Of a stretch of 64,000 nucleotides of DNA, positions 8,916 through 63,798 are shown one piece after another (positions within the stretch are counted from its first letter, which is position 1; each line of letters opens with the position of its first letter). The DNA is from Sphingomonadales bacterium. Lineage in GTDB: Bacteria; Pseudomonadota; Alphaproteobacteria; Sphingomonadales; Sphingomonadaceae. The stretch spans positions 105,294 to 169,293 of the forward strand of contig JBBSFH010000003.1 in NCBI GenBank assembly GCA_038238915.1, written 5' to 3'. The notes below the pieces were generated by a model that was given only the letters and a program-made list of their open reading frames with translations, had not been told where the DNA came from and searched no databases. Made by a program: the position numbers and the translations under genes.

Positions 8916-10066
8916 GCCTGACGTACCATCGCCGCGAACCGCTCGCGTTCGGTCTGCTCACGTGCCGAAAGCCCGGCGCGCACGCGGGTGGCGAAGCGGT
9001 TCAGTTCGTCATCGTCGCTGTCGAACATTCGGACATCGCGCTCGCCAGGCAGCGGCTGCTGCTGCACCCCGGCTGCGGGCGAGACCCACCGCCTTCGAGC
9101 GCCTCCAGTTGCCGCGATCATCGCGACCGATGCAGGCGCGCGCGCCGTAAGCCGTTGACGCGGCGGCATGGCCGGGCTTGGCGAAGATGCTGCGGTGTAA
9201 GTCGGCTGCGCAAACCTTGGCGCCAGGCCGGAGATCGCGAGAGCGATTTCCTCGTTCGACCAGCGCAGAACGCTAGTCGCGGCATCTGCCTGCGCAGAGC
9301 GTACCAAGGTCGGCTCCCGCATCAGCCCTGGCGGCTGCGCCTCCATTCGCCCCACGTTCGCAAGCGCGGTCTTGGCGTTCACCGCAGCCGTGTCGGCGGC
9401 GATCAGGCGTCGGTCATCCGCATCCGACCAGCCGCGTGCAACCACGGTCAATCCCGCCGCCGTCTGTTCGCCGGGCGATCCTTGCGCGGAGGCATGCAAG
9501 ATTAGTCGCTGCTCGCCTTCGCTCGTGCGCTCGACCATCGTGTCGGTTGCCGCATCGGTCGGTTCGGACTCGGCGACGTCCGCGCGGATGGAGGCGATCA
9601 GCTCCAGCGTCCGCTGCGCGGATGCGCGCGCCGCGGGCTGATCGCTGGCCGCCGCGCGTTGGAGCGGTACGCGCGCGGCGGCATAGTCGCCCGTGATCAC
9701 CAGCGCAAAGCCGAGATTGTTGAGCGTGACCGGATCGTCGGGATCGATCAGCAGTGCCGCTTCATAGAAGCCGCGCGATACATCGGGGCGGCCGAGCCGA
9801 TCGTAGCATACCGCCACGCCGTTCAGCGCATCGACCGATCGAGGATCCGCGACCAGTGCCTTGCGGAACGCCGCGAGCGCCTCGGGCACATTTTCAAGCG
9901 CAAGGAGCGATTTTCCCGTCTGATATGCGTCGACGGAGCTCGATCGGGACGCTTCGGTCGCGCTGAAGCGGATATCGATTGGCGGGCCGCGGTGCGCGGA
10001 TGCGCCGCTGGCGTCGAGCAGCAGGAGAACATCGAGCGAGAATGCGAGCGCCGGGGCGGTGCGCAT
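8912..10066 (-). CDS. TPR-repeat protein (Tad-locus associated)
   Basis: N-terminal TPR units (AYQTGKSLLALENVPEALAAFRKALVADPRSVDALNGVAVCYDRLGRPDVSRGFYEAALLIDPDDPVTLNNLGFAL). The C-terminal half is low-complexity. Sits in the operon between tadC and the second TPR gene. Confidence 0.65.
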   Translation of the reverse strand: MRTAPALAFSLDVLLLLDASGASAHRGPPIDIRFSATEASRSSSVDAYQTGKSLLALENVPEALAAFRKALVADPRSVDALNGVAVCYDRLGRPDVSRGFYEAALLIDPDDPVTLNNLGFALVITGDYAAARVPLQRAAASDQPAARASAQRTLELIASIRADVAESEPTDAATDTMVERTSEGEQRLILHASAQGSPGEQTAAGLTVVARGWSDADDRRLIAADTAAVNAKTALANVGRMEAQPPGLMREPTLVRSAQADAATSVLRWSNEEIALAISGLAPRFAQPTYTAASSPSPAMPPRQRLTARAPASVAMIAATGGARRRWVSPAAGVQQQPLPGERDVRMFDSDDDELNRFATRVRAGLSAREQTERERFAAMVRQA

Positions 10067-10069
10067 GGC

Positions 10070-11032
10070 CTAGTGCCCGGCCACGTGTGCGCCGCCGCTG
10101 AACTGACCCCGGATTTTGATCACCGCGGGAAGCATCAGCACCGCAATCATCGTCGGCAACAGGAACACGACCACGGGTACGGACAGCAGCACCGGCAGGC
10201 GATGGGCTTTCTCCTCCGCACGCATCCGCCGCGCCTCGCGCATTTCGGCAGCGTAGATGCGCAGACCCTGCGCGATGCTCGATCCGAGGCGGGCGGACTG
10301 GTTGAGCAGCGCGACGAAAGCTGCAATCTCGGTCAGGCCCGACCGACGGCCGAGATTCTTCAGCGCGTCCTCGCGCGTGCGTCCGGCGCGCAGCTCGAGT
10401 GTCAGCGCGGCGAAAAGCTCGGAGAGGAGGGGATGCGCCTCGGTGATCTCGGCTCCGACGCGGGCGAAGCTGGCGTCGATGCCAAGACCCGCCTCGACGC
10501 ATACCAGCAGCAGGTCGAGCGCGTCGGGGAACGCATTAAGGATCGCTTTGCGCCGCTCGCCCGCCTTTGACGAGATGATGAAGTCGGGAAGATACAAGCC
10601 AGCCGCAGCCGCACCCACGATCTCCATGTAGGTGTTGAGCGAGCCAGGATAGTGGGTGAGAGTGAAATAGGCCACGACGAGCGCGGGCATGCCGAGCGTC
10701 AGCAATGTCTTTGCAAAGACGAACACGCGAACCGCGTGAGGCTGCGAATAGCCCGCCAGCATAAGCTTGTTGGAGAGCGTATCGGCCTTGTCATCCGCGA
10801 GCGAAATCCCGCGCCGCTCGATCTCGCGGACCAATCGCGCCCAAGGTGAGCGGGTATGATCGGTCAGGAGCCGCATCTGATTCGGCTCGGCACTCATGTC
10901 TGCCGATGCCAGGCGTCGTCGGAGATCGACTTTTGGCTCGAACATCGGCGCCAACGCCATGACTGCCAGCGCGACGGCCGCAAAAATGACCAGTGAGACG
11001 AGCAGAAGCTGTGTGTCCGGTCCCGAAAACAT
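10070..11032 (-). CDS. tadC: Flp pilus assembly inner-membrane platform protein TadC (T2SS-F family)
   Basis: 320 aa. N-terminal TM, cytoplasmic T2SSF-like domain (...FPDALDLLLVCVEAGLGIDASFARVG...), C-terminal TM pair. Paralogous to and adjacent to tadB. Confidence 0.85.
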   Translation of the reverse strand: MFSGPDTQLLLVSLVIFAAVALAVMALAPMFEPKVDLRRRLASADMSAEPNQMRLLTDHTRSPWARLVREIERRGISLADDKADTLSNKLMLAGYSQPHAVRVFVFAKTLLTLGMPALVVAYFTLTHYPGSLNTYMEIVGAAAAGLYLPDFIISSKAGERRKAILNAFPDALDLLLVCVEAGLGIDASFARVGAEITEAHPLLSELFAALTLELRAGRTREDALKNLGRRSGLTEIAAFVALLNQSARLGSSIAQGLRIYAAEMREARRMRAEEKAHRLPVLLSVPVVVFLLPTMIAVLMLPAVIKIRGQFSGGAHVAGH

Positions 11033-11033
11033 C

Positions 11034-12029
11034 CTACACCTTTATCTTGATCATGCTCTTCATGACCACGACCCCCGTTGCGTACATCGCAAACATGATC
11101 GCAACGCCAGGCATGAACCAGCGGTCGTCGAGCACGTCCAGATAGAATTTGGGCTGCACCGCGAATAGAAAGCAGAAGGTGGCGACCGGCAGCAGGCTCA
11201 GCATCATGCCCGTGATCTTGCCCTCGCTCGAAAGCGCGCGGACTTTGAGGACCATGCTCGCGCGTTCGCGTATGACCCGGGCCAGGCCATCGAGAATATC
11301 CGCCAGATTGCCGCCGGTGTCCGCCTGGATCGAGACCGAGACCACGAACATCTGCATGTCCGGCGTGCTCACCCGCTCGGCGAGATTGCTTAGCGCGCGG
11401 CGCAGATCATAGCCGTAGTTCATCTCGTCGATGACGGTGCGGAACTCGGTCCGGATCGGCTCGGGGGATTCTTCAACCAGCAGGATCAGCGCACTCTGCA
11501 CCGGATGCCCTGCACGCAGGCCGCGCACGAAGATGTCGAGCGCGGTCGGGAACTGTGCCTCGAATTTGCCGATGCGCGACGCGCCACGACGCGCGACGAG
11601 CGCCAGCGGCAGCGCCACGCCGACGGCGAGCGCAAAGACGAGCACGAGCAGAATCGCGGCGGGCGATCGGAATCTCCCCAGAATGCCCCCCAGCACCGGA
11701 AATCCGATTGCAATCGCAGCGGTCGCGCCCACCATCTTCATCAGGAAGCGCTCCGGCCGAGTGGTCATCCCGGCCTGTCCAAGCTGGCGTGTGAGGAATG
11801 CCCAGAGCGGGATTGGGATCCAGGCCGGCCCGCGCCGACCCGCATCGCGTCGAAGCGTGGCCCGGGCCGCATCGCCGGTGCTATCGGCCGCGAGCGCCCG
11901 CATCCGCTTGGCAATCCGAGTGTCGGATCCGCGTTGATCCTGCAGCAGGCGGTAGAGCCCGACCACCACGAGCGCGATCGCAGCGAACACGATCGCGTAG
12001 AACAGCAGCATCGCCTCGTCGCGGGTCAT
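11034..12029 (-). CDS. tadB: Flp pilus assembly inner-membrane platform protein TadB (T2SS-F family)
   Basis: 331 aa with the same architecture (...FPTALDIFVRGLRAGHPVQSAL...). The ATG overlaps the cpaF stop (ATGA at 12026-12029). Confidence 0.85.
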   Translation of the reverse strand: MTRDEAMLLFYAIVFAAIALVVVGLYRLLQDQRGSDTRIAKRMRALAADSTGDAARATLRRDAGRRGPAWIPIPLWAFLTRQLGQAGMTTRPERFLMKMVGATAAIAIGFPVLGGILGRFRSPAAILLVLVFALAVGVALPLALVARRGASRIGKFEAQFPTALDIFVRGLRAGHPVQSALILLVEESPEPIRTEFRTVIDEMNYGYDLRRALSNLAERVSTPDMQMFVVSVSIQADTGGNLADILDGLARVIRERASMVLKVRALSSEGKITGMMLSLLPVATFCFLFAVQPKFYLDVLDDRWFMPGVAIMFAMYATGVVVMKSMIKIKV

Positions 12030-13447
12030 GCGACCACCTGCGTGTCGGAGAAGGGATTGAAGACGTGTTGGGGTATGTCGATCCCGCGCGCGTTGAGCAC
12101 GCGCATGAAGTTCGGACGAACGCCTGTGGGCCGGAAACTGCCGATCACCTTGCCGTCAGCAGCGATCCCCAGACGTTCGAAGCGGAAGATTTCCTGGAGT
12201 AGCACCACATCGCCTTCCATGCCCGTTACCTCGGACAGTGAGGTCAAGCGGCGGCTGCCATCGCTCAGGCGTTCGAGCTGGAGCACGATCTGAACCGCAG
12301 ATGCGATCTGGTTGCGAATTGAGCGCGGGGCGATATCCAGCCCCGCCATGCCGACCATCTGTTCGACGCGGCTGAGCGCATCGCGGGCCGTATTTGCGTG
12401 GACGGTGGTCATCGAGCCATCGTGGCCCGTGTTCATCGCCTGCAGCACGTCGAACGCCTCGCCCGAGCGGATTTCGCCCAGGATGATGCGATCGGGGCGC
12501 ATTCGCAGCGCGTTCTTGAGCAGTTCGCGTTGTGCGATTTCTCCACGCCCCTCGATGTTCGCGGGCCGGGTTTCCAGCCGGACCACGTGGCGCTGCTGGA
12601 GCTGGAGCTCGGCGGAATCCTCGATCGTGACCACGCGCTCGTGTCCGTCGATCGCCGACGACATCGCATTCAACATCGTCGTCTTGCCCGATCCGGTGCC
12701 GCCCGAGATCAGCACGTTGCGCCGTGCGCGCACCACCCCTTCAAGGACCAGCGCGCAATCCGCGCTCATCGATCCCAGTTGGACGAGGCGAGCCATGTCG
12801 ATCGGCGTCTTGGAAAACTTGCGGATCGACAGCACCGGCCCGTCGAGCGCCAATGGCGGGATAATCGCGTTGATACGGCTGCCATCGGGCAGACGCGCAT
12901 CGACCATCGGCGAGCTTTCATCGACCCGGCGGCCGACATTGGCGACGATCTTGCCGATCACGCGCAGCAGGTGGCGATCGTCGGCAAAGCGCGTGCGCGT
13001 CTCCTCGATCTTGCCGAAGCGCTCGATGAACACGAGCGAGGCACCATTGACCATGATGTCCGAAATCGTCGGATCTTTGAGCAGGGGTTCGAGCGGCCCC
13101 AGACCCATCATCTCATCGACGATATCGTCCACGAGCTGGCGGCGCTCGACGAGATTGAGCGCATAACTTTCCTCCTTCAGCATCTCCGAGACGAGATCGC
13201 CGATCTCGCGGCTCACCTGATCGCGGGTGAGCGTATCGAGCGCGGCGAGATTGATTCGTTCGATCAGTTTCTGGTGCAGGCTGACCTTGAGTTCGGTGTG
13301 CTGATTGATCTTGGACAGCTCGGGGGCGGGCGTTGCGGCAGGAGCGGCAGGAGCGGGAGTGATTGCCGGAGAGGGCGCGCGCGCGCGATCGGGCTCGCGC
13401 CCGTCGGACGGAACCTCGGTCGGCTGCGGGCGCGTGGGCCACTTCAC
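12026..13447 (-). CDS. cpaF: Flp pilus assembly ATPase CpaF/TadA
   Basis: Walker A ISGGTGSGKTTMLNAM, Asp box VVTIEDSAELQL, Walker B/His box RMRPDRIILGEIR...GHDGSMTTVHAN. The proposed GTG start at 13447 overlaps the stop of the cpaE C-terminal frame (GTGA). It is aa 414 of the 886-aa track ORF. Confidence 0.9.
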   Translation of the reverse strand: MKWPTRPQPTEVPSDGREPDRARAPSPAITPAPAAPAATPAPELSKINQHTELKVSLHQKLIERINLAALDTLTRDQVSREIGDLVSEMLKEESYALNLVERRQLVDDIVDEMMGLGPLEPLLKDPTISDIMVNGASLVFIERFGKIEETRTRFADDRHLLRVIGKIVANVGRRVDESSPMVDARLPDGSRINAIIPPLALDGPVLSIRKFSKTPIDMARLVQLGSMSADCALVLEGVVRARRNVLISGGTGSGKTTMLNAMSSAIDGHERVVTIEDSAELQLQQRHVVRLETRPANIEGRGEIAQRELLKNALRMRPDRIILGEIRSGEAFDVLQAMNTGHDGSMTTVHANTARDALSRVEQMVGMAGLDIAPRSIRNQIASAVQIVLQLERLSDGSRRLTSLSEVTGMEGDVVLLQEIFRFERLGIAADGKVIGSFRPTGVRPNFMRVLNARGIDIPQHVFNPFSDTQVVA

Positions 13448-14671
13448 GTCGCCACCTCCGCCGCCTTGAGCGCGGCAGCAAGGGATTTCACCATCGCGCG
13501 CAGATCGCGCTCGGTCCGTGATCGCGGCTTTATGGCGGACAATGGTTTGCCCTGATCGATCGCCGAGCTGACGAGGCGATAATCGTTGGTGATCCCGAAA
13601 TCGATCTTGCGTCCGATCGCAGCTTCGCTCTCGCTCAGATCGGCGCGGCCGAACAGCGGATGGATGATGCGGTTGACGACAAGCTGAACCCGATCGGCAA
13701 AGCCATTCTGCGCGATCACCTCGAGCTGCCGGCTTGGCCTGATGCAGACCGGGAACCGACAGGCCGGTCACCAGACACGTTATCGCCGACCTTTCGATCG
13801 CGTGCATCGACCACTCGGTCCACGCAGCCGGCAGCTCCAGGAGCACGATATCATAGGCTTCCGTCGCAGCATCGAGCACGCGGTCCACCCCTTCGACACC
13901 GACCGCGTCGAGAGGGCGCAGATCGATCGGTGCGCCCACCACCTCGAGACCCGAGCCGTGGCGCACAGCGATCGAGCGCAGCAACTCGCCGTCCAGCCGG
14001 GCGCCCGCCTCGATCACATCGGTCAGTCCGAGTTGCGGGCGCAAGTCCAGGTACAGCGCGGCAGTTCCGAACTGGACGTTGAAATCGATCAGGCACACTC
14101 GGGCGTCCGCCGCCCAGAGTATGCCGAGCTGCGTCGCGATGCTGGTCACGCCGCTGCCGCCGATCGCGCCGACGAGCGCGACGACCTGACCCCGGCGTGC
14201 CGGCGCTCGCGCACGCGCGATTACGCGGCCCATTTCGGTCACCGCGCGGACCGTCTGCCTGACATCGTCGAGCACCAGCGGGAAGGCCAGCGCGTCGGCG
14301 GCGGCCGCACGCATCGCGAGGCGGGTGCGATCGACGTCGAGATCGCGGATCGCGGCGATCACGGGAACGCTGCCCGCCAGATCGCGGGCGAAGCGTTCGA
14401 ACTCGACGCGCTGCGTCGGCACGGCGGGATCGATCTCGAAAATAATCACGTCCGCGTCGCGCAGTTCGGCGGCCGCTGCGGCGACGTTGACGAGCAGCGC
14501 GCTGTCCACGCGCACGTCCATGTCATCGGCATCGCTGAGCGCCGCGGCTGCGGCCAGCGAGGTGCCGGGCTGAAGCAGCAGGCGGACACGCGTGGCGCGA
14601 TCGTTCGACCGCGTCGGCTCCCCGATCTCGCGTCGGATGGGAACAATCTGCGCCGTGGCGGCGGGGTTCAT
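13444..14671 (-). pseudogene. cpaE: cpaE/tadZ (ParA/MinD-like pilus localisation ATPase) interrupted by a 1-nt frameshift near 13729-13732
   Basis: The N-terminal 318 aa are CpaE-like (receiver-like domain, deviant Walker A VALVGAIGGSGVTSIATQLG). They lie in the frame of ORF 12026..14686. The genuine C-terminus (IAQNGFADRVQLVVNRIIHPLFGRADLSESEAAIGRKIDFGITNDYRLVSSAIDQGKPL...) is in ORF 13444..13719, another frame. The junction reads ...HQAK|(c)RQLEVIAQNG at a CCGG. Start is the ATG at 14671 or the TTG at 14686. Confidence 0.7.
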
Positions 14672-14682
14672 TTCATCCCCGC

Positions 14683-14994
14683 TCAATTCGGGGTCTGGAT
14701 GATCGGAATCGAGACAGTGGCCTGTTCTCCAGCGCCGCCCTGTCCGCCGATATCGGTCTTGCCGTTTGTCTTGAGCAGGGGCTTGAGCTTGCCCGCCCGG
14801 TAGCGGATCAGCGCGTCGGTACTGCGCTGCCCGTCGCCGCCCTCGATCAATGCGCCCTCGAACCGCGGATGCGGATCGGCGATCTGCGTTGCAATGTTAC
14901 TGCGTACCGACGCGCCGAGTTCGGGATCGGGTTCGGCGCGCGCGGCGGTGGCACCAAGCGCGATCAGGCCGAGATATGCCAGCATCCGTCTCAT
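14683..14994 (-). CDS. Small secreted protein in the cpaD position of the tad operon
   Basis: ATG at 14994 gives MRRMLAYLGLIALGATAARA|EPD..., a clear signal peptide. It sits between the cpaC stop (14997) and the cpaE start. I recognised no family. Confidence 0.5.
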   Translation of the reverse strand: MRRMLAYLGLIALGATAARAEPDPELGASVRSNIATQIADPHPRFEGALIEGGDGQRSTDALIRYRAGKLKPLLKTNGKTDIGGQGGAGEQATVSIPIIQTPN

Positions 14995-26210: not shown

Positions 26211-26876
26211 ATGAACGCTGCCGCAGGCGGGGCCGACGGTTTTGCGGCAAACATGATGGCTGGCATCGTGATCGGCGATGGGTCGACGACGCCTCGTTCG
26301 CTCCAGCCACAGTCCTTTCGGCAGTTGCTGCAGACCGCCACCGGCGAGACTCATCAGCGATTGCACCATCATTCCGGCCTTTCAGCAGTGCAAGACGGCA
26401 CGATCAGCCGATCGGACTACCGAAGCCTGCTCGAACGCCTCCATGGATTCCATCGCGCTTTCGAACTCGCAGCAGGTCTCACCGCCGAGCGTAGTGTGTG
26501 GCTGGCGCTCGATATCGAGGCGCTGGGTGGCTTCGATCAACCGGGCGGCTCGCCGCCGCTATGTCCTGCCATGCCAGACTTCGATACGGCCGAAAGCGTC
26601 CTCGGCGCGCTCTATGTCGTCGAAGGCTCGGCGCTCGGCGGGCGTAGCCTGGCGCGTGGCCTCGATCGCCTGCTCGGGCCCGGGACGCCGCACGGTCGGC
26701 GCTTCTTCGAAGGGCGCGGTCAGGAAACAGGCGCGGCGTGGCGCGCGTTCCTTGTCCGTCTGGAGCACGCATCGAGAGAATCATCCGCGCGCGCTGCGGT
26801 CATCGAAAGCGCTGTCGAGACGTTTTCGGTGTTCGAGAAGTGGCTCAACGGTTGGAGTACAGCGGATGCCAGTTGA
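26211..26876 (+). CDS. bphO: Heme oxygenase (biliverdin-producing, BphO-type)
   Basis: 221 aa. Heme-oxygenase-like helical pattern (FRQLLQTATGETHQRLHHH..., DYRSLLERLHGFH, ALYVVEGSALGG). Lies directly upstream of the phytochrome gene and overlaps it by 11 nt. Confidence 0.75.
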   Translation: MNAAAGGADGFAANMMAGIVIGDGSTTPRSLQPQSFRQLLQTATGETHQRLHHHSGLSAVQDGTISRSDYRSLLERLHGFHRAFELAAGLTAERSVWLALDIEALGGFDQPGGSPPLCPAMPDFDTAESVLGALYVVEGSALGGRSLARGLDRLLGPGTPHGRRFFEGRGQETGAAWRAFLVRLEHASRESSARAAVIESAVETFSVFEKWLNGWSTADAS

Positions 26877-29535
26877 AATCGAGCCGATCACGGGCGTGAT
26901 CGACGCCACAAATTGCGACCGCGAACCCATCCACATCCCCGGTGCGATCCTGCCGCATGGTGCGATGCTGGTGCTGGACCCGGACAGTTTGGAAGTCCTG
27001 CAGGTCGCAGGCGATACGGCTGGTCTGCTCGGCGTACAGATTGCCGCGCTGCTCGGTTCGTCCGCCACCGACTTGTTCAATCCCGAGCAGGTCGCGCATC
27101 TTCGCGCCCTGAATGCGCGGTTCGACCTTGCCAAGCCCCGTCACCTGCTCGATCCGGTGCTGCGCATCGATCCGGCGCGCCCGCTCGACGCGAGCCTGCA
27201 TCGCAGCGGCGGTGCGCTCGTCCTGGAGTTCGAAGCCGCCGATATCGGCGACCGACTTGCCGCCGATCCGCTCGCCGGCGTGCAGGAAATGATCGCGGGT
27301 TTCGACGAGCCCGGTTCGCTTCAATCGCTCTGCCAGCTTGCGGCTGAACGTGTGCGCAATGTCGCGGGCTACGACCGGGTACTGGTCTATCGCTTCATGC
27401 AGGACGATTCGGGCTGGGTGATCGCGGAGGCGCGCGAGCCACATCTCGAACCGTTCCTCGATCTTCATTACCCGGCCGCCGACATTCCCAGCCAGGCTCG
27501 CGCGCTTTACGTGAAGAGTCCGCTCAGGCTGATCACGCAGGTCAACTACGATCCCGCACCGCTGACGCCGGTGAACAATCCGCGCACGGGCGAACCGCTC
27601 GACATGAGCCACGCCATCCTGCGCGACGTCTCGCCGATCCATCGCCAGTATCTTCGCAACATGGGCATCGATGCATCGATGTCGATCTCGATCATACAGG
27701 CGGGCAAGCTCTGGGGGCTGATCGCCTGTCATAACCACAGCCCGCGCCTGTTACCGCGCCACCTTCGCGCGGTGTGCGAGCTATTCGGTTCGATGTTCTC
27801 GCTGCAGCTCGAGGCGCGCGAGAAGGGAGAGCAATTCCACGAGCGGCTGGCCAGCCGGATGGTGCTGCAGAACCTGATGCTCAACCTCGCCAGCGCCGAA
27901 GACTATGCAGCCGGACTGACGCAGCAGTCGCCAAACCTGCTCGATTATATTCACGGTGGCGAAGCCGCGCTCGACGGCGTTCGCCGCGGCGGCGTGGCGG
28001 TCTGCGTCAAGGACCGATTGACCTTCCTCGGCATCACACCGAGCCAGGTCGAGATCGAAGCGCTGGTCGGGTGGCTGGATACGCACATGCAGCGAAGCGA
28101 GGGGGTTTACTCGACCGACCGCCTCGGGGAGGTGTGGGTAGATGCCAAGGCGTTCGCCGAGGTGGCTTCGGGTATTCTGGTGATCTCGGTCTCGCCCGAC
28201 CATTCCGACTACATTATCTGGTTCCGGCCCGAGATGGTTACGAACGTCCATTGGGCAGGCGCGCCGGAGAAGCGCGTCGAATCCGGTCCCGACGGCGATC
28301 GCCTGGCACCGCGCCGATCCTTCGAGCTGTGGAAGGAGACGGTGGTCGGTCGCAGCATTCAGTGGACTCCCGCGGACGCGGACGCAGCATTCGATCTGCG
28401 CGTCTCGCTGCTGCACGTCGTGCTGCGTCGCATCAAGTCGGCCGCGCGCGAGCGCAAGGCGGCTGCTGACCGCGACCAGCTGCTGATGGCCGAACTCGAC
28501 CATCGCGTGAAGAATACTCTGGCAAACATCCAGGCTCTGGTCGTTCAAACCAGCCGCAGCGCCGAATCGCTGACCGGCTTCGTCGAAGGGCTCGATGGTC
28601 GCATCCAGTCGATGGCGAAGGCGCATAGCCTGCTGTCCGAAAGCCGCTGGGAAGGCGTTTCGATCGGACGTCTGATGCGCGAGGAACTCGATCCTTACAG
28701 CAAGCGCAACAACGTCATCGCCCTGCGCGGGCCGGAGATCGTGCTGACGCCGAAATCGGCGCTATCTTTGTCGCTGGCTGTCCATGAGCTGGCGACCAAT
28801 GCGAGCAAATTCGGTGCGCTGCAGTCTACTAGCGGCAGTGTAACTATAGAATGGGATGTGTCCGGCGACGGCGGGATCAAATTATTGTGGCGTGAGGCCG
28901 ATGGGCCGGTAGTTCTGCCACCCACCCGGCGGGGCTTCGGCTCGACGCTTATCGAGCGTGCCCTTGCGATGGAAACCGGCGGCAGAGCGAAGATCGAATA
29001 TCTGCCAGAAGGCGTGGTTTGCGAAGTCTCGCTGCCGGCAACTTCTGTTTCACGGCTCGCCCCCGAGCTGCCGGTGTTGCCCGAGATCATCGCGACAGGC
29101 CGCATACTAACTGCCACGATCGCTGATCCCTATCGCGTCCTAGTTGTCGAAGATTCGTTTCTCGTCGTCATGCTCCTTGAGGATCTGTTCGAGAAAATCG
29201 GCTGGAAGATCGTCGGACCGGCAACGCGGGTGGACGAGGCGCTGGAGTTCGCACGCTCCGAGACCTTCGACGCGGCCTTCCTCGATCTCAATCTTAATGG
29301 CGAGATGTCGTGGCCGGTAGCCGCCATGCTGCAGGAGCGAAACATCCCGTTCGCGTTCAGCACGGGCTACAACGTCGAGACCTTGCTGCCCGCCAGCCTC
29401 AAGGGCACGCCCATTGTCAGCAAGCCCTTCCAACCCGCTGAGGTCGAGGCATGTTTGCGACAGATCATCATCGACCAGCGCAGTCGGGACCTGGGCGAAG
29501 CGAGCGATGGAAATCGGGCGCTCGATCTTCGCTGA
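26866..29535 (+). CDS. bphP: Bacteriophytochrome: PAS-GAF-PHY photosensory core + HWE/HisKA_2 histidine kinase + C-terminal receiver
   Basis: ATG at 26866 (GGAG 8 nt upstream) inside ORF 26278..29535. Biliverdin Cys context ATNCDREPIHIPGAILPHG. GAF blocks HYPAADIPSQARALY and SPIHRQYLRNMGIDASMSISI. Kinase blocks ELDHRVKNTLANIQALV, HELATNASKFGAL and GFGSTLIERAL. Receiver RVLVVEDSFLV...FLDLNLNGE...STGY...KPF. Confidence 0.9.
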   Translation: MPVEIEPITGVIDATNCDREPIHIPGAILPHGAMLVLDPDSLEVLQVAGDTAGLLGVQIAALLGSSATDLFNPEQVAHLRALNARFDLAKPRHLLDPVLRIDPARPLDASLHRSGGALVLEFEAADIGDRLAADPLAGVQEMIAGFDEPGSLQSLCQLAAERVRNVAGYDRVLVYRFMQDDSGWVIAEAREPHLEPFLDLHYPAADIPSQARALYVKSPLRLITQVNYDPAPLTPVNNPRTGEPLDMSHAILRDVSPIHRQYLRNMGIDASMSISIIQAGKLWGLIACHNHSPRLLPRHLRAVCELFGSMFSLQLEAREKGEQFHERLASRMVLQNLMLNLASAEDYAAGLTQQSPNLLDYIHGGEAALDGVRRGGVAVCVKDRLTFLGITPSQVEIEALVGWLDTHMQRSEGVYSTDRLGEVWVDAKAFAEVASGILVISVSPDHSDYIIWFRPEMVTNVHWAGAPEKRVESGPDGDRLAPRRSFELWKETVVGRSIQWTPADADAAFDLRVSLLHVVLRRIKSAARERKAAADRDQLLMAELDHRVKNTLANIQALVVQTSRSAESLTGFVEGLDGRIQSMAKAHSLLSESRWEGVSIGRLMREELDPYSKRNNVIALRGPEIVLTPKSALSLSLAVHELATNASKFGALQSTSGSVTIEWDVSGDGGIKLLWREADGPVVLPPTRRGFGSTLIERALAMETGGRAKIEYLPEGVVCEVSLPATSVSRLAPELPVLPEIIATGRILTATIADPYRVLVVEDSFLVVMLLEDLFEKIGWKIVGPATRVDEALEFARSETFDAAFLDLNLNGEMSWPVAAMLQERNIPFAFSTGYNVETLLPASLKGTPIVSKPFQPAEVEACLRQIIIDQRSRDLGEASDGNRALDLR

Positions 29536-29787: not shown

Positions 29788-30762
29788 TCAGGCACTTGCA
29801 GCCCGCCCGCCGGCGGTTCCCACGAACTCACGGTCGTGCCGTTCGAGGCAGGCGGCGATGGCCGCGGCGATCGGCTGCTCCGTGCGGTCGGCGACGAACA
29901 GATATTCGCCCCCCGGGTTGACCTCCAGAAATACATGCTCGCCTTCGGGCGTGACGCGGAAGTCGACCGCTCCATATTTCAGGCCAAGAAGGTCCATCAG
30001 CGCCTGCAACTTGTCCGCAACGTCGTCCGGCAGCCGATAGCGTGCCACCTCGGCGGTGCCGATGCCGCTGCGGTAATCGACCTGATGCTCGGCGTCCGAA
30101 CGGAAGCTCGCGGTGAACATCTCGCCATCGATCGCCGTGGTGCGCAGATCGAGATCGGCCGCGACGAACTTCTGGAAGATCACCGGCGCGAACCTTACGC
30201 TGTCGATGCGTCCAAGATCCGCCGCCTCCACCCGCGCCGTCTCGCGTGGTGCTTCGGCGATGTTGCGGAATGCCTTGCGGATCACTTCGCCCGGCCCGTG
30301 CGTCCCGATGAAGGCGCGCGCTTCCTCGGGGATGTTGGTGATCAGCGTTTCGGGAATGCTCAGCCCCACCTGCCGCGCGAGCTGCAACTGTCGGATTTTA
30401 CGTTGCGCCACTTCGTCCGCCATCGGCGGGTTCATCCAGAAACAGTCGATCGAATACCACGTCCCCATCAGCGCTTCGGTCGATTCGGACCAGGCGAACA
30501 GTCGCGCCACCTCGTCGGTGAGTGCCGGATCGAGCGTGATCGGCTTGATCCGCCGGTGCCACACCGCACCAACCTCCATCAGGTCGAGATCAGAGCCATC
30601 GGGCAGTCTGAACCCCAGCCGCATGTTGTCCGCGTCCGCGCCCATGCGCAGGCCGAGCTTGCTCGGGAACCAGCCGTTATCGACGATCGTGTAGGGGCGG
30701 GACAGGTGCTGCGTCACCCGACGCACATGCTCGTTGTCGAGGAAAGATATGATCAGGATCAT
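29788..30762 (-). CDS. ATP-grasp ligase resembling MvdC/MvdD-type graspetide (RiPP) macrocyclases
   Basis: ATG at 30762, 5 nt after GGAG, inside ORF 29788..30798. Blocks MILIISFLDNEHVRRV, AVWHRRIKP, QRKIRQLQLARQVGLSIPETLITNIPEEARAFI and KYGAVDFRVTPEGEHVFLEVNPGGEYLF match my recollection of the microviridin ATP-grasp blocks (VLIVTHSHDNES, AVWYRR, QLQLQVARQLGLLIPGTL, NYGAIDMIVTPDERYIFLEINPVGEF). No HMM was run. Confidence 0.75.
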   Translation of the reverse strand: MILIISFLDNEHVRRVTQHLSRPYTIVDNGWFPSKLGLRMGADADNMRLGFRLPDGSDLDLMEVGAVWHRRIKPITLDPALTDEVARLFAWSESTEALMGTWYSIDCFWMNPPMADEVAQRKIRQLQLARQVGLSIPETLITNIPEEARAFIGTHGPGEVIRKAFRNIAEAPRETARVEAADLGRIDSVRFAPVIFQKFVAADLDLRTTAIDGEMFTASFRSDAEHQVDYRSGIGTAEVARYRLPDDVADKLQALMDLLGLKYGAVDFRVTPEGEHVFLEVNPGGEYLFVADRTEQPIAAAIAACLERHDREFVGTAGGRAASA

Positions 30763-30824: not shown

Positions 30825-32021
30825 CTAGTTCTGCCCGGCTGTGAGTTGCTGATAGGCCGCCGCGAGTTGCTGCGACATCGCGTGGCCCGCGTGATCGAGC
30901 AGGCCCGCCGAGGCGAGCTGGCCGAGCGCCGACAGGATATGCCGATAGGCTTCGGTGAGCTGCGCGCGCGCCGCATCGTCCGCGCGGCCGCCACCCGCGC
31001 CGCCCGCGCCATGCGCACCCTGCGCGCCGCCGAGCACGAACGGCTGTCCCCCGCCGCCGCCGCCGCCGAACACCGGCCCAGGGCCGCCGTGGGGAAAGCC
31101 GTGGTTCTCGAACACGTCTTTGGGAATATCCTTCGGCGGGTCCTTGTGGAAGTCCTTCGGCGGGTCCTTGTGGAAGTCCTTCGGCGGGTCCTTGTGGAAG
31201 TCCTTCGGCGGGTCCTTGTGGAAGTCCTTCGGCGGGTCCTTGGGAGGGTCCTTCCCATTATCCTGTACAGGGTTCTTGGGAAGCTGGGCCTGATAGTGGG
31301 CGAGAATTCGCTTTCTAGAGAGCGCCGTGGCGAAGATCGCCACCTCATCGATCAGGCCATAGAATGTTCGATGGATCGTGCTGCCGACAGGAATCATGCC
31401 CATCCGGTCGCCAATCGCCAGAGCGACTTCCGGGTCGTCTGGCGGCGTGTGTGGCCACTTGGTATCGATGTCGATCGCAGTCGTATTGATGGGAGTCGCG
31501 CTGTCCAGAATGCCGTTCAGGTAAATCCGGATCGCCAGCCCGTCGTAGGTGGCGACCACATGGGTCTCCGCACCCAATGCGACCACCCCGGTGCTGTCGG
31601 CAGCGACGACGTGAGGTGTTGAAGATCCGTCGTTCATGCGGAGTTCCACACGAACCTTCGCGTCCGGATTCACGCTCAGGCCGTATTGCGTCGTGCCCGC
31701 GTAACTCTCTTTTTCCAGGATGCGCTGCTGAAGGCCGGTCGGGCCGTCCCATCGAACCTTGGCTTCCATCGTTATTCGGGGCGGATTGTTGGTCGCACTG
31801 TTGGGAACGACAATTCGTCCGGTCGTGCCGTCGAACAGCGCCGCCGTGTCTCCGCCGTGGAAGCCGGGGTGCCCCAGCGTGATTCCACCGGTCGAGTAGG
31901 TTCCATCGTTGCCGTGCCCGGACGCATCGGCTGCTGGCGCGCTTACGGTAGCCTCCCCCAGGCGCCAGTAGCCGATTGGTCCGTCCGCCAACACTTCAGC
32001 CGCATAGGTTGCGAGTGCCAT
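30825..32021 (-). CDS. LamG/ConA-like lectin-fold protein with C-terminal KDPPKDFH repeats, Gly-rich block and conserved helical tail
   Basis: ATG at 32021, 7 nt after GAGGGG. The LamG pattern includes LFDGTTGRIVVPNS, HVVATYDGLAIRIYLNG and FYGLIDEVAIFATALSRKRILAHY. The C-terminal module follows: ...GKDPPKDPPKDFHKDPPKDFHKDPPKDFHKDPPKDFHKDPPKDIPKDVFENHGFPHGGPGPVFGGGGGGGQPFVLGG...RADDAARAQLTEAYRHILSALGQLASAGLLDHAGHAMSQQLAAAYQQLTAGQN. No signal peptide. Confidence 0.8.
   Translation of the reverse strand: MALATYAAEVLADGPIGYWRLGEATVSAPAADASGHGNDGTYSTGGITLGHPGFHGGDTAALFDGTTGRIVVPNSATNNPPRITMEAKVRWDGPTGLQQRILEKESYAGTTQYGLSVNPDAKVRVELRMNDGSSTPHVVAADSTGVVALGAETHVVATYDGLAIRIYLNGILDSATPINTTAIDIDTKWPHTPPDDPEVALAIGDRMGMIPVGSTIHRTFYGLIDEVAIFATALSRKRILAHYQAQLPKNPVQDNGKDPPKDPPKDFHKDPPKDFHKDPPKDFHKDPPKDFHKDPPKDIPKDVFENHGFPHGGPGPVFGGGGGGGQPFVLGGAQGAHGAGGAGGGRADDAARAQLTEAYRHILSALGQLASAGLLDHAGHAMSQQLAAAYQQLTAGQN
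31129..31250 (-). repeat. Coding tandem repeat: four perfect 24-bp units plus one degenerate unit (encodes KDPPKDFH)
   Basis: The plus-strand unit tccttcggcgggtccttgtggaag is repeated head-to-tail at 31129, 31153, 31177 and 31201. A fifth unit at 31225 diverges in its last third. Confidence 0.9.
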
Positions 32022-32129
32022 AGCCAATCCCCTCGATAGTCCCGCGAGTAACTGCCCGCCTCGGCCGAGCTACGATGAGCGGTGAAGACCGCCTTCGCCG
32101 CTCCACACATGCCGAGGCGGGTCTGCGAC

Positions 32130-33875
32130 CTAGTTTTGCGCGCTTGTGAGCTGCTGGTAAGCCGCGCTCAATTGCTGGTACATCGCCTGACCCTGCGGAT
32201 CGAGCAGCCCCGCCTGGGCAAGCTGGCCCAGCGCGCCCAGCAGTTGCTGGTAGGCCTGTGTGAGCAGCGCGCGCGCGGCATCGTCGCGTCCGCCGCCGCC
32301 GGCTGCCGGGCCGTGTGCTCCGCCGCCGAGCACGAACGGCGTGCCGCCCCCGCCCTGATTGCCGAACACCGGACCCTGCCCGCCGAACTGCGGCCCGGGG
32401 TTGCCGCCGCCTCCCGGGAACCCCGGGTTCTCAACAAGCTGCTTGGGATTTTCGAACCCCGGCGGCTTTTGCGGATCGAAAACCGCTTCCTTGGCATGTT
32501 CCTTGATGAAGTCCTTCAAGGCTTCCTTCGGAAAGTCCTTGTGGAAGTCCTTGGGATTATCCTTGATAATGTCCTTCGGGTTATCCTTGTGACCATCCTT
32601 CGGCTGGTCCTTGTGGAAGTCCTTGGGATTGTCCTTGATCACATCCTTGGGATTGTCCTTGTGACCATCCTTGTGGCCATCCTTGTGACCATCTTTCGGC
32701 TGGTCCTTGTGCAAGTCTTTTGGATCGTCCTTGATGAAATCCTTCGGGTTGTCCTTGATCGCTTCTTTAGGGCTATCCTTGGGATGATCCTTGACGAAGT
32801 CTTTGACCGGTTCCTTGATCAGATCCTTCGGCGAGTGCTTCACCACGGGCCCGCACGACACGCTCGATCCGATTGAACTGCGTGGCCCGTCAAGCGCGGC
32901 CTGGATCCGCGTTACCTGGCCGGTGCTGAACATTACCATCGCGGCGTCGTCGACATAGTCCATGTAATTCATGAACATGTCGCCGTTGGGGCCGTTCGAG
33001 CAACTGATGGTCGGGAACGGCGGATGGCCGAAGTTCGGCCCACCCTGGTTGGGCGTGTCGGCAACGGCATCGGTGCCGCCGCATCCGCCGCCGTCATCGC
33101 CCCAGATATGGAGGAGGTTCAGCCAATGGCCAACCTCGTGCGTTGCCGTCCGCCCAAGGTTGAACGGCGCGGCGGCGGTGCCCGTCGTGCCGAAGCCCGT
33201 ATGCAGGATCACCACGCCATCGGTCGCCGCCGCACCGCCGGGGAACTGCGCATAGCCCAGTAGCGGGCTGGTAAGCTGACAGACCCACAGATTCAGATAC
33301 TGGTCCCTCGGCCACGCGTCCGCGCCGCCCGTCGCCGCCGATTTGACCGTGTCGTCATGGCCGAAGCTGGCCACCGCCGTCTGCGTCCGGGTGACGCCGT
33401 TGGTCGCTGCGCCGTTCGGATCGTGCGTCGCCAATTCGAAGACGATCCGCGCATCGGCGGCGAGCGGCGCGAAAGGCGCGGGTACCGTCGAAACGTCGGG
33501 ATTGGCCTTGCGGTAATCGCGGTTTAGAACCGCGATCTGGCTGTCGATCTGCGCCTGGCTGATGTTCTGGGTGGCGGTGTTGTACACCACATGCACCACC
33601 ACCGGGATCTTGGTGCAGCCCGTGCGCTGCGGGGACATCAGTGATTCGGCTCGGAACGCGCCATCCTCGATGCGCGCGCGCGCCGCCGCATAACGCGGAT
33701 CGGTGTTCAAAAGCCGCCGATGCACCTCCATCGTGCCGCATGAGCGCTTGGTTGGTGACGGTGGAAGCGCGTCCCCGCCATCGGGTCTGGCCCCGCCGCC
33801 GCCGCCGCCCGCTCCTCCATAAGCCGGGCCCCCGCCTGGGGCGTCGGGCTTGTTATCCGTCGGTTCGCTCATCAT
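32130..33875 (-). CDS. M43 (pappalysin/ulilysin-type) zinc metalloprotease with C-terminal KDxPKDxx repeats, Gly-rich block and conserved helical tail
   Basis: ATG at 33875 or 33872 after AGGAGGAAG, inside ORF 32130..34031. Zinc site [31 protein letters not shown]. Met-turn region [23 protein letters not shown]. About 14 K-D-x-P-K-D-x-x units follow ([82 protein letters not shown]...). Then the Gly-rich block and the tail [52 protein letters not shown]. No signal peptide. Confidence 0.85.
32484..32840 (-). repeat. Coding tandem repeat region: imperfect 24-bp (and 12-bp) units encoding KDxPKDxx / KDGH
   Basis: Plus-strand periodic motif 'tccttg..atc..tccttggg..t' runs through 32.48-32.84 kb. 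This corresponds to aa 398-516 of track ORF 32130..34031. Confidence 0.8.
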
Positions 33876-33925
33876 TCTTCCTCCTTCGTCACAAGGTTTG
33901 GAACGCGAAACGCAACCTGCCTGCC

Positions 33926-34231
33926 TTACTCCGCCGACAGCACCAATTTGTCCGGGGTCGATTGTGCGACGTGATATTTGCCCGACCAGCCCGGCGCGTC
34001 GATCGTCAGACGATCCCCCGCAATCGACCACGCCCCCGGCGTGCTCGTGGGCCGGTCATCGGGTCCAGGCGCGTTTGCATGCGCCACGCCCGCCTGCGCG
34101 ATCTTGATTCCCCGGCGTCCGCGCGCGGGGGGGATCGGCGAACCGGCGGGCTTGAGCACGATCTGCCCCTGGCCGCCCTCCTCGCGCACTTCCACCCAGT
34201 CTCCGATCAACGTCGCTGGATCGAGTGCCAT
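33926..34231 (-). CDS. Small hypothetical protein (101 aa), first gene of the KD-repeat/ATP-grasp operon
   Basis: ATG at 34231 preceded by [38 protein letters not shown]...[34 protein letters not shown] looks like a small beta-rich (lipocalin/META-like?) domain. Family not recognised. Confidence 0.5.
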
Positions 34232-58541: not shown

Positions 58542-59677
58542 CGTGTTGCTCCAGCGGGTGCGGGCGGCGGGGCGGACGCGATCACGACCGGCGGGGGCAG
58601 CGTGGCGACGGCGCTTGGGGGTTGCGTTGGTGCAATCGGTGGCGTGGCAGCGCGCTGCGGTCCGCGCGCGTGGCGTTCGAGCTGGCCGCGCTTGGCATCG
58701 TCCACGAAACGATCGAGCGGCACGGTCTCGCTGGCGAAGTTGATCTTCACTTCGCCAAATAACTGCGCCTTGAGTTCGCTATCGGCCTGGACATTGACGC
58801 CCATGGTCGAAACCTTCGTCGTCGGAGCGTCGTAGGTGGTCGAGCCGCGCGCTCCCCACTGTGTCGCATTGCTTTGCGGATCCGAACCGGTCGCATAATC
58901 GAATTTCTTGTGATCGGCAGCAGACGCGCGGAAGCGGACGTTGGCGTTGATCGAGCCATCCTTGACCACAACGCGATTCATTCCGAGCAGCACCATCGTC
59001 GAGAGCGTCTGCAACCGCTGCTTCGCCACGGTCTCGCGCGCATGGGCGAGGATCTGCTGTTCGAGCACCTCCGAAGTCAGTTCCTGTCCTTCCAGGCCAT
59101 AATCTGCGAGCACGCGCGGTGCCTCCGCCTCCCCGTCCGGCCCGGCTGTCCTGGCGATCGGCACCAATGTTGGTGTGCCGCTTTCGTGGTTCAGCGCCAC
59201 GTCACGCGGATATTGTTCGACAAGATAGTCACGCGCCTGGTTCGGCGTGACATTCTCCTGCGTGAATTGTTCGAGCGGCTTGGCGACGGCTGCGACAAGG
59301 TCGGCGAAGCTCTCCATCTGGCGGATCGACGCGTCGACGATCGCGTCGAACGTGCCGTGGACCAGGCTGGCAACGAAGGCGGGGAAATCGACTTCATCGA
59401 CAAGGTTGCCCACGCGCCGCCCGAGCGCGTCGGTTGCGAGTTCGCGCTTGGCGGGCGGAGAGGCGGGCGCTGGCGTTTGCGACGCGCTATCGGCGGGCGG
59501 GCCCGCCGCGTCGGGAATCTCGCGCCCGAACGCATCGCGCGCGAGGCTGCGCACGAGCGGCGCACGGCCGTAACTCGGCGGTGGAGGAGGGGGGCGCAGA
59601 CCCGGCACGTGCAACCGATCAGGCGCTGACGTGGAGGGGATCGAGTTCCCATTCGTTGGTGCGGTCGTGACGCCCAT
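58538..59677 (-). CDS. Unknown family 1, paralog D (379 aa; start uncertain, overlaps the end of the upstream gene by 59 nt)
   Basis: Blocks DFPAFVASLVHGTFDAIVDASIRQMESFADLVAAVAKP, KQRLQTLSTMVLLGMNRVVVKDGSINANVRF and VKINFASETVPL. Pro-rich N- and C-termini. Confidence 0.7.
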   Translation of the reverse strand: MGVTTAPTNGNSIPSTSAPDRLHVPGLRPPPPPPSYGRAPLVRSLARDAFGREIPDAAGPPADSASQTPAPASPPAKRELATDALGRRVGNLVDEVDFPAFVASLVHGTFDAIVDASIRQMESFADLVAAVAKPLEQFTQENVTPNQARDYLVEQYPRDVALNHESGTPTLVPIARTAGPDGEAEAPRVLADYGLEGQELTSEVLEQQILAHARETVAKQRLQTLSTMVLLGMNRVVVKDGSINANVRFRASAADHKKFDYATGSDPQSNATQWGARGSTTYDAPTTKVSTMGVNVQADSELKAQLFGEVKINFASETVPLDRFVDDAKRGQLERHARGPQRAATPPIAPTQPPSAVATLPPPVVIASAPPPAPAGATR

Positions 59678-63410: not shown

Positions 63411-63414
63411 GGGG

Positions 63415-63798
63415 CTACCTCGGTCCGATGGGCGACGCGGGCGTCGCGGGGTTGGTGTGCGTTGGAAGCGGACGGGCACGCGCGCGGATCGCGCGGCGCT
63501 CGAAATCGGGGACGCTGCCGAGTAGCGCGCTGAGCGCATCATCATCGGTGACCTCGGCAATCGGTCCATGTGCGGCCTCGAAGCGCTCGACCGCGTCCGA
63601 AAACAGCCGCGCGAACAGCTTGGCCTGCACCGGTCCCGCCACGATGCGCGAATGGACGTGGACCGAGTCGGTCTCGGGGCGGAACTGGCCGAAATCCAGC
63701 AGGAACTCGAAGGCATTGTGGCCGACTTCACAATAGTTCGCGTAAACCGCGAGCGGTGCGCCGTTGGTAGCCGGGGCGAGTGCGGGTGGGGTCATCAC
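63415..63798 (-). CDS. DUF3467-like small protein (first gene of the sigma-54 operon)
   Basis: (GTG)MMTPPALAPATNGAPLAVYANYCEVGHNAFEFLLDFGQFRPE...VHSRIVAGPVQAKLFARLFSDAVERFE. The YAN..V.H...EF.LDF core matches my recollection of DUF3467. Confidence 0.6.
   Translation of the reverse strand: MMTPPALAPATNGAPLAVYANYCEVGHNAFEFLLDFGQFRPETDSVHVHSRIVAGPVQAKLFARLFSDAVERFEAAHGPIAEVTDDDALSALLGSVPDFERRAIRARARPLPTHTNPATPASPIGPR

Follow-up and report, generated by a model that had tools for sequence, protein, structure and literature searches.

The window analyzed here is the whole of a 64,000-nucleotide stretch of DNA from a Sphingomonadales bacterium (assembly GCA_038238915.1, contig JBBSFH010000003.1, positions 105,294 to 169,293), in which a four-gene operon, arranged head to tail on the minus strand, encodes two proteins that carry different heads and share a C-terminal cassette. 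A promoter-like site (34344-34317) lies upstream of the operon, the first gene of which encodes a lipocalin-like protein of 101 amino acids (aa) (33926..34231). It is followed by the genes for a 581-aa M43 (pappalysin-type) pro-metalloprotease ending in the cassette (32130..33875; Pfam PF05572, E=2e-13), for a 398-aa LamG (Laminin_G_3) protein ending in a second copy of the cassette (30825..32021; Pfam PF13385, E=3.4e-16) and, last, for a 324-aa ATP-grasp enzyme of the graspetide macrocyclase class (29788..30762; P0035). The full open reading frames (ORFs) span 30825..32027 for the LamG protein and 32130..34031 for the M43 protein, both on the minus strand. We placed the M43 start at the ATG at 33875, which is preceded by AGGAGG and agrees with the N termini of the orthologues, and the LamG start at 32021, because the resulting protein is identical to database entry P0003. 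For the M43 protein with this start, the protein collection contains no identical entry. The M43 head displays a zinc motif (33108-33140) and, in its pro-segment, an Arg-x-Cys-Gly cysteine switch (RSCG, 33735-33746), a feature known from the M43 family (PMC6949598). The M43 and LamG genes are separated by 108 nt (32022-32129) that include a perfect 11-bp inverted repeat (CCCGCCTCGGC ... GCCGAGGCGGG), which, to judge from its sequence, could form a stem-loop in the mRNA within the operon.

The C-terminal parts of the M43 and LamG proteins align with 54% identity over 179 columns (BLASTP, E=5e-40), confirming a shared module that had first been described from the DNA letters and translated ORFs alone (hereafter, the sequence-only reading), the quoted sequences of which are exact. 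The last ~105 residues are 64% identical over 108 aa (tblastn against the window, E ~2e-37), and the same type of search found no third copy of the tail in the 64-kb window. From PFVLGG to the stop codon the two tails are 72% identical, both ending in ...AAYQQLT(A/S)(G/A)QN, and they are mutually closest, any other family member reaching at most 51%. As far as the sequences go, such a pattern fits either a local duplication with replacement of the head or two substrates kept matched to one enzyme. The span given in the sequence-only reading (30825-32840) takes in both cassettes (LamG, 30828-31253; M43, 32133-32828) with the LamG head between them, and the shared module begins further upstream than described there, as it includes a periodic K-[D/E]-x-x array.

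Both cassettes, encoded on the minus strand, display the same succession of four parts. In the M43 protein, the putative core, an unbroken run of 29 K-[D/E]-x-x tetrads with Lys as donors and Asp/Glu as acceptors (32481..32828), is followed by an FDPQK...ENP... segment that leads into a flexible linker rich in Gly and Pro (32340..32480), then by PFVLGG, a leader-type motif of the form P-h-h, where h is hydrophobic (32322..32339), and by a helix-turn-helix hairpin of ~50 aa that extends to the C terminus and aligns with the LamG tail (32133..32285). In the LamG protein, the corresponding parts are 12 K-D-x-x tetrads made of KDPPKDFH units (31110..31253), a Gly-rich linker (31044-31109), PFVLGG (31026-31043) and a helical hairpin, predicted by AlphaFold2, that extends to the C terminus (30828..30980). 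The (F/L)DPxK junction is kept in orthologues. Across eight family members, the tetrad consists of K (100%), D/E (100%; 75% D, 25% E), x and P (72%), while Ser and Thr together account for 6 of 808 repeat residues. Lys and Asp/Glu, which are invariant in every tetrad, are the only reactive donor and acceptor residues of the repeats. Within the M43 array, Asp is encoded by 13 GAC and 11 GAT codons and the third tetrad position spans 17 codons; this synonymous variation indicates that K and D/E are held by selection at the protein level. The LamG repeat DNA forms a 24-nt tandem array of 5.2 copies with 97% identity (31129-31254), compared with 71% for the M43 array, and would therefore be a recent expansion, younger than the M43 array. 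The number of LamG repeats, by this DNA evidence, probably changes fast.

The last gene of the operon encodes an enzyme that matches the NCBIfam graspetide models TIGR04187 (E=2.8e-61), MvdC (1.3e-53) and MvdD (1.1e-50), with RimK far behind (4.1e-9; 36 bits, compared with a cut-off of 143), and Pfam recognizes an MvdD pre-ATP-grasp domain. Among proteins of known structure in the PDB, its sequence matches MdnB (1.7e-40) and MdnC (6.8e-31), as well as AMdnB, CdnC, PruB and PsnB, with RimK at 8.5e-4. An AlphaFold2 model of the enzyme (predicted local distance difference test, pLDDT, ~95) superposes on MdnC, AMdnB, CdnC, MdnB, PruB and PsnB with TM-scores of 0.80-0.87 (0.84-0.87 for MdnB/MdnC), compared with ~0.75 for RimK, at 15-18% identity. 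By sequence and modelled fold, the enzyme is thus a graspetide macrocyclase and not a RimK. This distinction bears on a possibility raised in the sequence-only reading, namely a RimK-like reaction on an invariant C terminus, in which the ATP-grasp would add amino acids (such as poly-Glu) to the terminal carboxylate of the tail. RimK is a detectable distant relative in both NCBIfam and the PDB, some database entries name the homologues "RimK-type," and both tails of the window end in QN. Among orthologues, however, the extreme C terminus is not conserved (QN, AQG, NAG, ASC, GGV, IGS, LTS, AGF, LSS and GGA are all found), and graspetide macrocyclases match the enzyme, including its pre-ATP-grasp domain, far better, so that ligation of this kind is highly improbable. 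The element conserved family-wide is the PF motif, not the terminal ...QQLT..QN.

Using the window's ATP-grasp, we scanned one genome per species and found ten close orthologues at 58-68% identity (L001-L010), which belong to Sphingomonas, Sandaracinobacter, Ectothiorhodospiraceae, Deinococcaceae, Trueperaceae, Terriglobia, Rhodothermaceae and two metagenome-assembled genomes (MAGs) labelled bifidobacterial, the nearest relatives being those of Sphingomonas and Sandaracinobacter. In 10 of 10, the gene that ends just before that of the enzyme codes for an M43 protein; its K-[D/E]-x-x tetrads number 9-35, and they are accompanied by a PF(V/T)L(G/A)(G/T) motif and by a helical tail that is homologous. 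The same layout is present in Mesorhizobium sp. L-8-10, Roseovarius aestuariivivens and Leptolyngbya sp. SIO1D8 (L085-L087). The 100-aa tail alone returned nothing at E<=0.01 from a collection of 5.8 billion proteins, and the repeats together with the tail returned 11 matches; an exhaustive search of 1.84 billion representatives with a profile of the tail gave 25 clusters, in every one of which the tail lies at the extreme C terminus. The K-D-x-P cassette is also carried by astacin heads (P0031, P0033) and, with 49 tetrads, by an S1/Nal1-like serine-protease head that contains a GDSGS motif (P0023), and each of these genes is directly followed by an ATP-grasp 57-61% identical to that of the window. 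A LamG head was found in one member, the window's own. Enzymes at 40-46% identity (L011-L017, L081) are likewise preceded by a protein of the same plan, the head of which is trypsin-like, astacin, unknown or missing. Its repeats (DTLKE, ETLKE, DTKKE, VTIKRLDD and similar) always combine T/K with D/E, and are followed by a Gly-rich stretch, PF(V/A/I/S)(L/M/I)(A/G/I)(T/H) and a helix, which in sister-clade tails is long and coiled-coil-like. The tail is thus not confined to two paralogues, which the sequence-only reading had named as the outcome that would speak against its proposal, and the portability that it proposed holds for M43, LamG, astacin and S1/Nal1-like heads, with further astacin as well as trypsin-like, unknown and headless versions at greater distance.

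We then considered all loci with an enzyme at least 40% identical to that of the window and with upstream sequence available, 25 in total (the window, L001-L017, L081 and L085-L090). At every one of them, the cassette gene ends 11-120 nt ahead of a graspetide-type ATP-grasp gene, with no room in between for a separate small precursor gene. Where the ATP-grasp is more distant (62 loci), the cassette architecture was not seen, and several of these loci carry ordinary small precursors. In addition to the M43 and LamG heads, the set comprises astacin (L014-L016, L089, L090), S1/Nal1-like (L088), trypsin-like (L011, L012) and unknown (L013, L017) heads and one headless version (L081); as the enzyme is kept across all of these, the linkage is independent of the head. 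Besides the ATP-grasp, and the lipocalin-like protein where the head is M43, no gene is conserved in all loci. Most loci encode one cassette protein each. Cassette proteins measure 400-650 aa, with folded heads, and the PF motif lies after the repeats, 31-114 residues from the C terminus. The hosts are mainly Pseudomonadota, Deinococcota, Acidobacteriota and Cyanobacteriota, together with a Rhodothermaceae MAG (L009) and the monoderm Cellulomonas (L016), and the enzyme clade comprises more than 120 clusters at >=58% identity, including cultured Mesorhizobium, Roseovarius, Paracoccus and Leptolyngbya.

The sequence-only reading suggested that the cassette could be an export, anchoring or cargo-loading tag and offered this as an alternative to macrocyclization; the ATP-grasp would then be an accessory. 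Like the signals of PEP-CTERM/exosortase, LPXTG/sortase, type IX secretion (T9SS), type 1 secretion (T1SS) and encapsulin cargo, the cassette is a portable C-terminal module with a flexible linker. Its Gly-rich stretch and C-terminal amphipathic helix loosely recall what is generally known of type 1 substrates, a MacB-type ATP-binding cassette/membrane fusion protein (ABC/MFP) pair adjoins one locus (L086), and the heads, although pappalysin, astacin, S1 protease and LamG are usually extracellular types, lack an N-terminal signal peptide. As characterized pappalysins are secreted zymogens (PMC6949598), a non-classical route would be needed if these heads act outside the cell. Several observations argue against such a tag. 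The tails match no described sorting domain in Pfam or NCBIfam, and we found in them neither a transmembrane-like segment (maximum 19-residue Kyte-Doolittle mean <=1.43, a measure by which the heads also lack a signal peptide) nor a basic cluster. Across the loci, no transporter or exporter, sortase-like, exosortase or shell gene is conserved. In contrast to LPXTG, PEP-CTERM and GlyGly-CTERM proteins, the cassette proteins have no signal peptide, transmembrane helix, basic cluster or cognate sorting enzyme. The T9SS C-terminal domain is a beta-sandwich of ~80 aa found in Bacteroidota (TIGR04183-type), whereas the cassette tail is predicted to be all-helical and has no NCBIfam match. In the quoted cassette sequences we saw no RTX nonapeptides (GGxGxD) of type 1 substrates, for which a conserved ABC/MFP pair is also missing, and type 1 secretion is inapplicable to the monoderm Cellulomonas. 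No scanned ORF of the window matched an encapsulin shell protein in Pfam. The variability of the extreme C terminus also speaks against a tag, and a tag would leave unexplained both the leader-type PF motif and the invariant coupling, in 25 of 25 loci, to a cytoplasmic macrocyclase. We thus regard a dedicated export, sorting or cargo tag as very unlikely, and macrocyclization as the better supported of the two, although the proteins may still be exported via an unlinked route.

The PF motif itself suggests a link between the cassette and the graspetide enzymes. P-F is invariant in 25 of 25 cassettes, in the form PF-[VATIS]-[LMI]-[AGI]-[TGH]. Graspetide leaders carry the signature Phhx(1,2)h; its microviridin version, PFFARFL, attaches to the ATP-grasp at the middle subdomain and is required for catalysis to begin (PMC8939145). 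The combination of PF, two hydrophobic residues and a small residue fits this signature, and is the sole element invariant in all 25 cassettes. Moreover, the 76-aa classical precursors of related ATP-grasps in Bosea and Rhodoplanes (L058, L066, L073) have LPFVLAN at residue 12 of their N-terminal leader, and microviridin-type neighbours of related enzymes have PFFARFLE at the equivalent leader position. The cassette thus has a genuine motif of leader type, but behind its core rather than ahead of it. The three 76-aa precursor candidates are conserved, lie just upstream of the ATP-grasp (~9400-9700 in their loci) and consist of a leader, LPFVLANSKPYALEQY, and a C terminus rich in Ser, Thr and Asp.

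Based on the linkage, the class of the enzyme and this motif, we propose that the cassette is probably a C-terminally placed leader, or follower, joined to a K/D-repeat core, in which the downstream enzyme would install Lys-Asp/Glu isopeptide staples. By analogy, the best explanation of the cassette is a microviridin-type graspetide precursor in reversed order, grafted onto full-size proteins. Recognition would rely on PFVL(G/A), probably aided by the hairpin behind it, as a leader-type element located C-terminal to the core and hence a natural follower, with the K-[D/E]-x-P tetrads serving as a multi-copy core. In the cytoplasm, the enzyme would bind the tail and convert Asp/Glu side-chain carboxylates into acyl phosphates, which would be attacked by Lys epsilon-amines to give many Lys-Asp/Glu isopeptide (macrolactam) staples along the linker, with the loss of 18 Da for each. 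The M43 pro-protease and the LamG protein of the operon would both be substrates of the same enzyme, because of which their two tails are expected to be closest to each other, as they are.

Several points weigh against this proposal. The enzyme scores under the trusted cut-off of every NCBIfam graspetide model (350 bits for TIGR04187), and would therefore belong to a separate subfamily. The PF motif is short, and the Lys-Asp/Glu cross-links in the product are ones that we infer from sequence. The adjacency of K and D and the four-residue period are unlike known ring patterns (KxxxD), so the ring topology is unpredictable. To our knowledge, all characterized graspetide precursors are peptides with N-terminal leaders, and a folded substrate of 40-65 kDa is unprecedented in nature. 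When the LamG cassette was tethered to the enzyme and modelled with AlphaFold2, with only the enzyme represented by an alignment, the pLDDT values of the repeats and of PFVL were below 50. The hairpin is confidently modelled in this tethered form (helices 417-443 and 449-466, pLDDT 83-90), but is predicted almost equally well when the LamG cassette is folded alone (pLDDT 79-87, with 64 for the last block), so that the tethered model gives no support for docking. Mantel tests detected no co-variation of tail and enzyme beyond shared ancestry, either across the loci (r=0.27, p=0.07) or within M43 loci (r=0.20, p=0.13), compared with r=0.36 and p=0.003 for head and enzyme. For the idea of recognition, we consider the outcomes of the tethered model and of the Mantel tests as neutral to mildly negative.

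These same outcomes keep alive another explanation, in which the hairpin is an oligomerization domain, the K/D/P array acts as a charged and rigid spacer, and the ATP-grasp either joins separate chains, such as the M43 and LamG proteins, through Lys-Asp bonds or acts on something else. The tail would then have a structural role and would not be what the enzyme recognizes. The near-equal confidence of the hairpin with and without the enzyme suggests an autonomous fold in the models, and together with the coiled-coil-like long helix of sister-clade tails, the co-expression in one operon of two cassette proteins with near-identical tails, and the lack of detectable co-variation of tail and enzyme, this speaks for an oligomerization domain. 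In an engineered setting, the graspetide enzyme ThfB cross-links protein dimers (PMC13003496). On the other hand, most loci encode a single cassette protein. Furthermore, only ~25 residues follow the PF motif in L013 and L017, and the motif lies amid the repeats in L081; the hairpin is therefore not universal, whereas the PF motif and the enzyme are. We consider oligomerization unlikely as the main role of the cassette, although it overlaps with the stapling proposal, since interchain bonds would still make the cassette a substrate of the enzyme.

If the tails are stapled, the modification may affect the proteases to which they are fused. In the M43 family, the S1' pocket prefers Lys or Arg (PMC6949598), and, given that Lys occurs at every fourth residue of the array, an unmodified tail could potentially be cut by its own M43 head. 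Conversion of Lys into isopeptides would abolish such self-cleavage sites, which hints, as a speculation, at why protease heads dominate. In a more speculative extension of the mechanism, stapling would erase the Lys and acidic charges read by the fused proteases (pappalysins cut before Lys/Arg), and would either render the tail protease-proof or confine cleavage to unmodified sites. Tentatively, and with less confidence than for the stapling itself, we put forward a natural case of graspetide chemistry on the scale of proteins: in the cytoplasm, a follower-guided ATP-grasp would zip a ladder of Lys-Asp/Glu staples, as many as dozens, into the tails of a lectin-like protein and of pro-proteases, and would possibly thereby gate the cutting of the fused protease. 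Gating could take the form of shielding the tail from self-cleavage, of excising stapled units precisely, or of cross-linking the protease to the lectin.

The first gene of the operon follows the M43 head rather than the tail. Its 101-aa product accompanies M43-headed cassettes only (the window, L001-L010 and L085-L087), and is absent from astacin, S1, trypsin-like and headless loci. It displays an invariant W, PPxRGR and the D of a DDR motif, and 4 of 11 members weakly match Lipocalin_4 (PF13648, best E=6e-5), while a comparison with PDB sequences gave no significant match (best E=0.6). These features point to a partner specific to the M43 head and not a part of the tail system, possibly an inhibitor or a chaperone. 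We also considered this protein as the true precursor of the enzyme and rejected it, as it has no repeats and is absent from loci with other heads.

The comparison with known systems places the cassette proteins closest to the graspetides. With the systems of MdnA/MdnB/MdnC, plesiocin (PsnA/PsnB) and chryseoviridin (CdnC), they have in common an adjacent MvdC/MvdD-type ATP-grasp encoded in one operon with its substrate, a leader-type P-h-h motif and a repeated core of donor and acceptor residues. They differ in that the substrates are proteins of 400-650 aa with protease or lectin heads rather than peptides, in that the recognition element lies C-terminal to the core and not in the N-terminal leader of a small precursor, in the strict K-[D/E]-x-P array with up to ~50 units and almost no Ser or Thr, and in the lack of conserved leader-cleavage or export genes. 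Combining a full-size enzyme domain with repeated or terminal core peptides in one polypeptide is known from borosin methyltransferase-core fusions and from plant BURP-domain cyclopeptide precursors. In those proteins the fused domain is the modifying enzyme, whereas here a protease or lectin takes this place and modification would be left to a separate enzyme. Corallotide, from graspetide group 15 of Corallococcus, contains five KxxxD isopeptide repeats in a precursor of ~22 kDa modified by a TIGR04187-type synthetase (PMC13097080). It resembles the cassette proteins in its unusually large precursor and its repeated Lys...Asp motifs converted into isopeptide macrolactams, while an N-terminal leader, the lack of a fused enzyme domain, the requirement for a 2-oxoglutarate oxygenase partner and restriction to a single genus are its own.

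A graspetide leader shifted to the C terminus still directs modification, in an arrangement that its authors called unnatural, and ThfB cyclizes proteins (PMC13003496). Such engineered followers and ThfB cyclizations (PMC13003496, PMC12291112) are man-made, whereas the arrangement reported here would be natural. In the accessible part of the supplement of PMC13097080, graspetide group 30 of the RODEO survey comprises 65 predicted biosynthetic gene clusters; astacin occurs in 98.5% of them, a YscW-like protein in 80% and PF13385 in 15%. As far as that part indicates, the survey takes the astacin as a neighbouring maturation or resistance gene and not as the precursor, and group 30 may correspond to the astacin branch of the cassette superfamily.

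Several individual loci of the family show peculiarities. In L081, from a Gemmatimonadales MAG, a headless cassette protein of 211 aa has PFIMAT between two unlike repeat blocks, and the ATP-grasp gene downstream is broken into two or three pieces (10001-11609 for the locus as a whole); either decay of this enzyme gene or its mis-assembly may be the cause. In Mesorhizobium and Roseovarius, an M28 peptidase gene lies immediately upstream of the three-gene module (L085, 2248-3711; L086, 2363-3799), and in Roseovarius the MacB-type exporter genes lie immediately downstream on the opposite strand. P0011 (L082, 444-998) has K-[D/E]-x-x tetrads, but no tail, behind a TIGR03067-like head that bears a clear signal peptide; the tetrads are near-identical to those of a Sandaracinobacter cassette and the source is a metagenome contig of 1175 bp, so this protein may be an assembly chimera or a secreted variant. 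In L088, a 100-aa gene (1611-1913) upstream of the S1-headed cassette protein resembles the N-terminal ~60 residues of that protein, and looks like a duplicated pro-domain-like piece.

In the window, the operon is flanked by genes for a heme oxygenase and a bacteriophytochrome, an amino-acid permease, a patatin-like protein and a glucoamylase-like protein, which are unrelated to it and not kept at other loci. The heme oxygenase gene and, after it, that of the bacteriophytochrome (PAS_2-GAF-PHY-HWE histidine kinase-receiver) occupy the plus strand at 26211-29535, convergent with the ATP-grasp gene, and are not conserved elsewhere. About 17 kb from the operon, at 12026-14686 on the minus strand, a type II/IV secretion-family ATPase (T2SSE) is encoded among co-directional ORFs; it is unlinked to the cassette operon in other genomes. 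Further away (59619-63731, minus strand), a 1370-aa protein combines Amidase_2, Peptidase_C92 and Peptidase_C70 (AvrRpt2-like) domains, upstream of which (~48-59 kb) lie several large ORFs with no Pfam match. This region could be a toxin or cell-wall effector locus. None of the four operon proteins matched a PADLOC defence model.

In the literature searched, we found no description of a graspetide or ATP-grasp system combined with M43 or astacin proteases. The Makarova survey does not mention the cassette architecture, and the readable part of the supplements and co-occurrence tables of the 2026 RODEO survey contains neither PF05572 nor the cassette motifs. The family, in which whole proteins with a follower of natural origin seem to be targets of a chemistry so far known from small peptides only, is rare and apparently undescribed. 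Genome-mining tools that look for small precursors only appear to have left the clade unreported, despite more than 120 enzyme clusters. If the proposed modification is true, this would be the first graspetide system in nature to be directed by a follower, and likewise the first natural system in which an ATP-grasp staples proteins, with a cassette shuffled among three unrelated protease folds. Graspetide enzymes are studied as tools for the cyclization of peptides and proteins, for which C-terminal leaders and protein substrates have so far been engineered only; the family would provide ready-made parts, namely a follower tag of ~70 aa, a staple unit of four residues and a matching enzyme. 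It would also broaden the notion of what a substrate of the type of peptides that are made on ribosomes and modified after translation (RiPPs) can be, and would raise the question of why the same stapled tail came to be joined to a lectin fold and to proteases of three unrelated families, none of them with a signal peptide.

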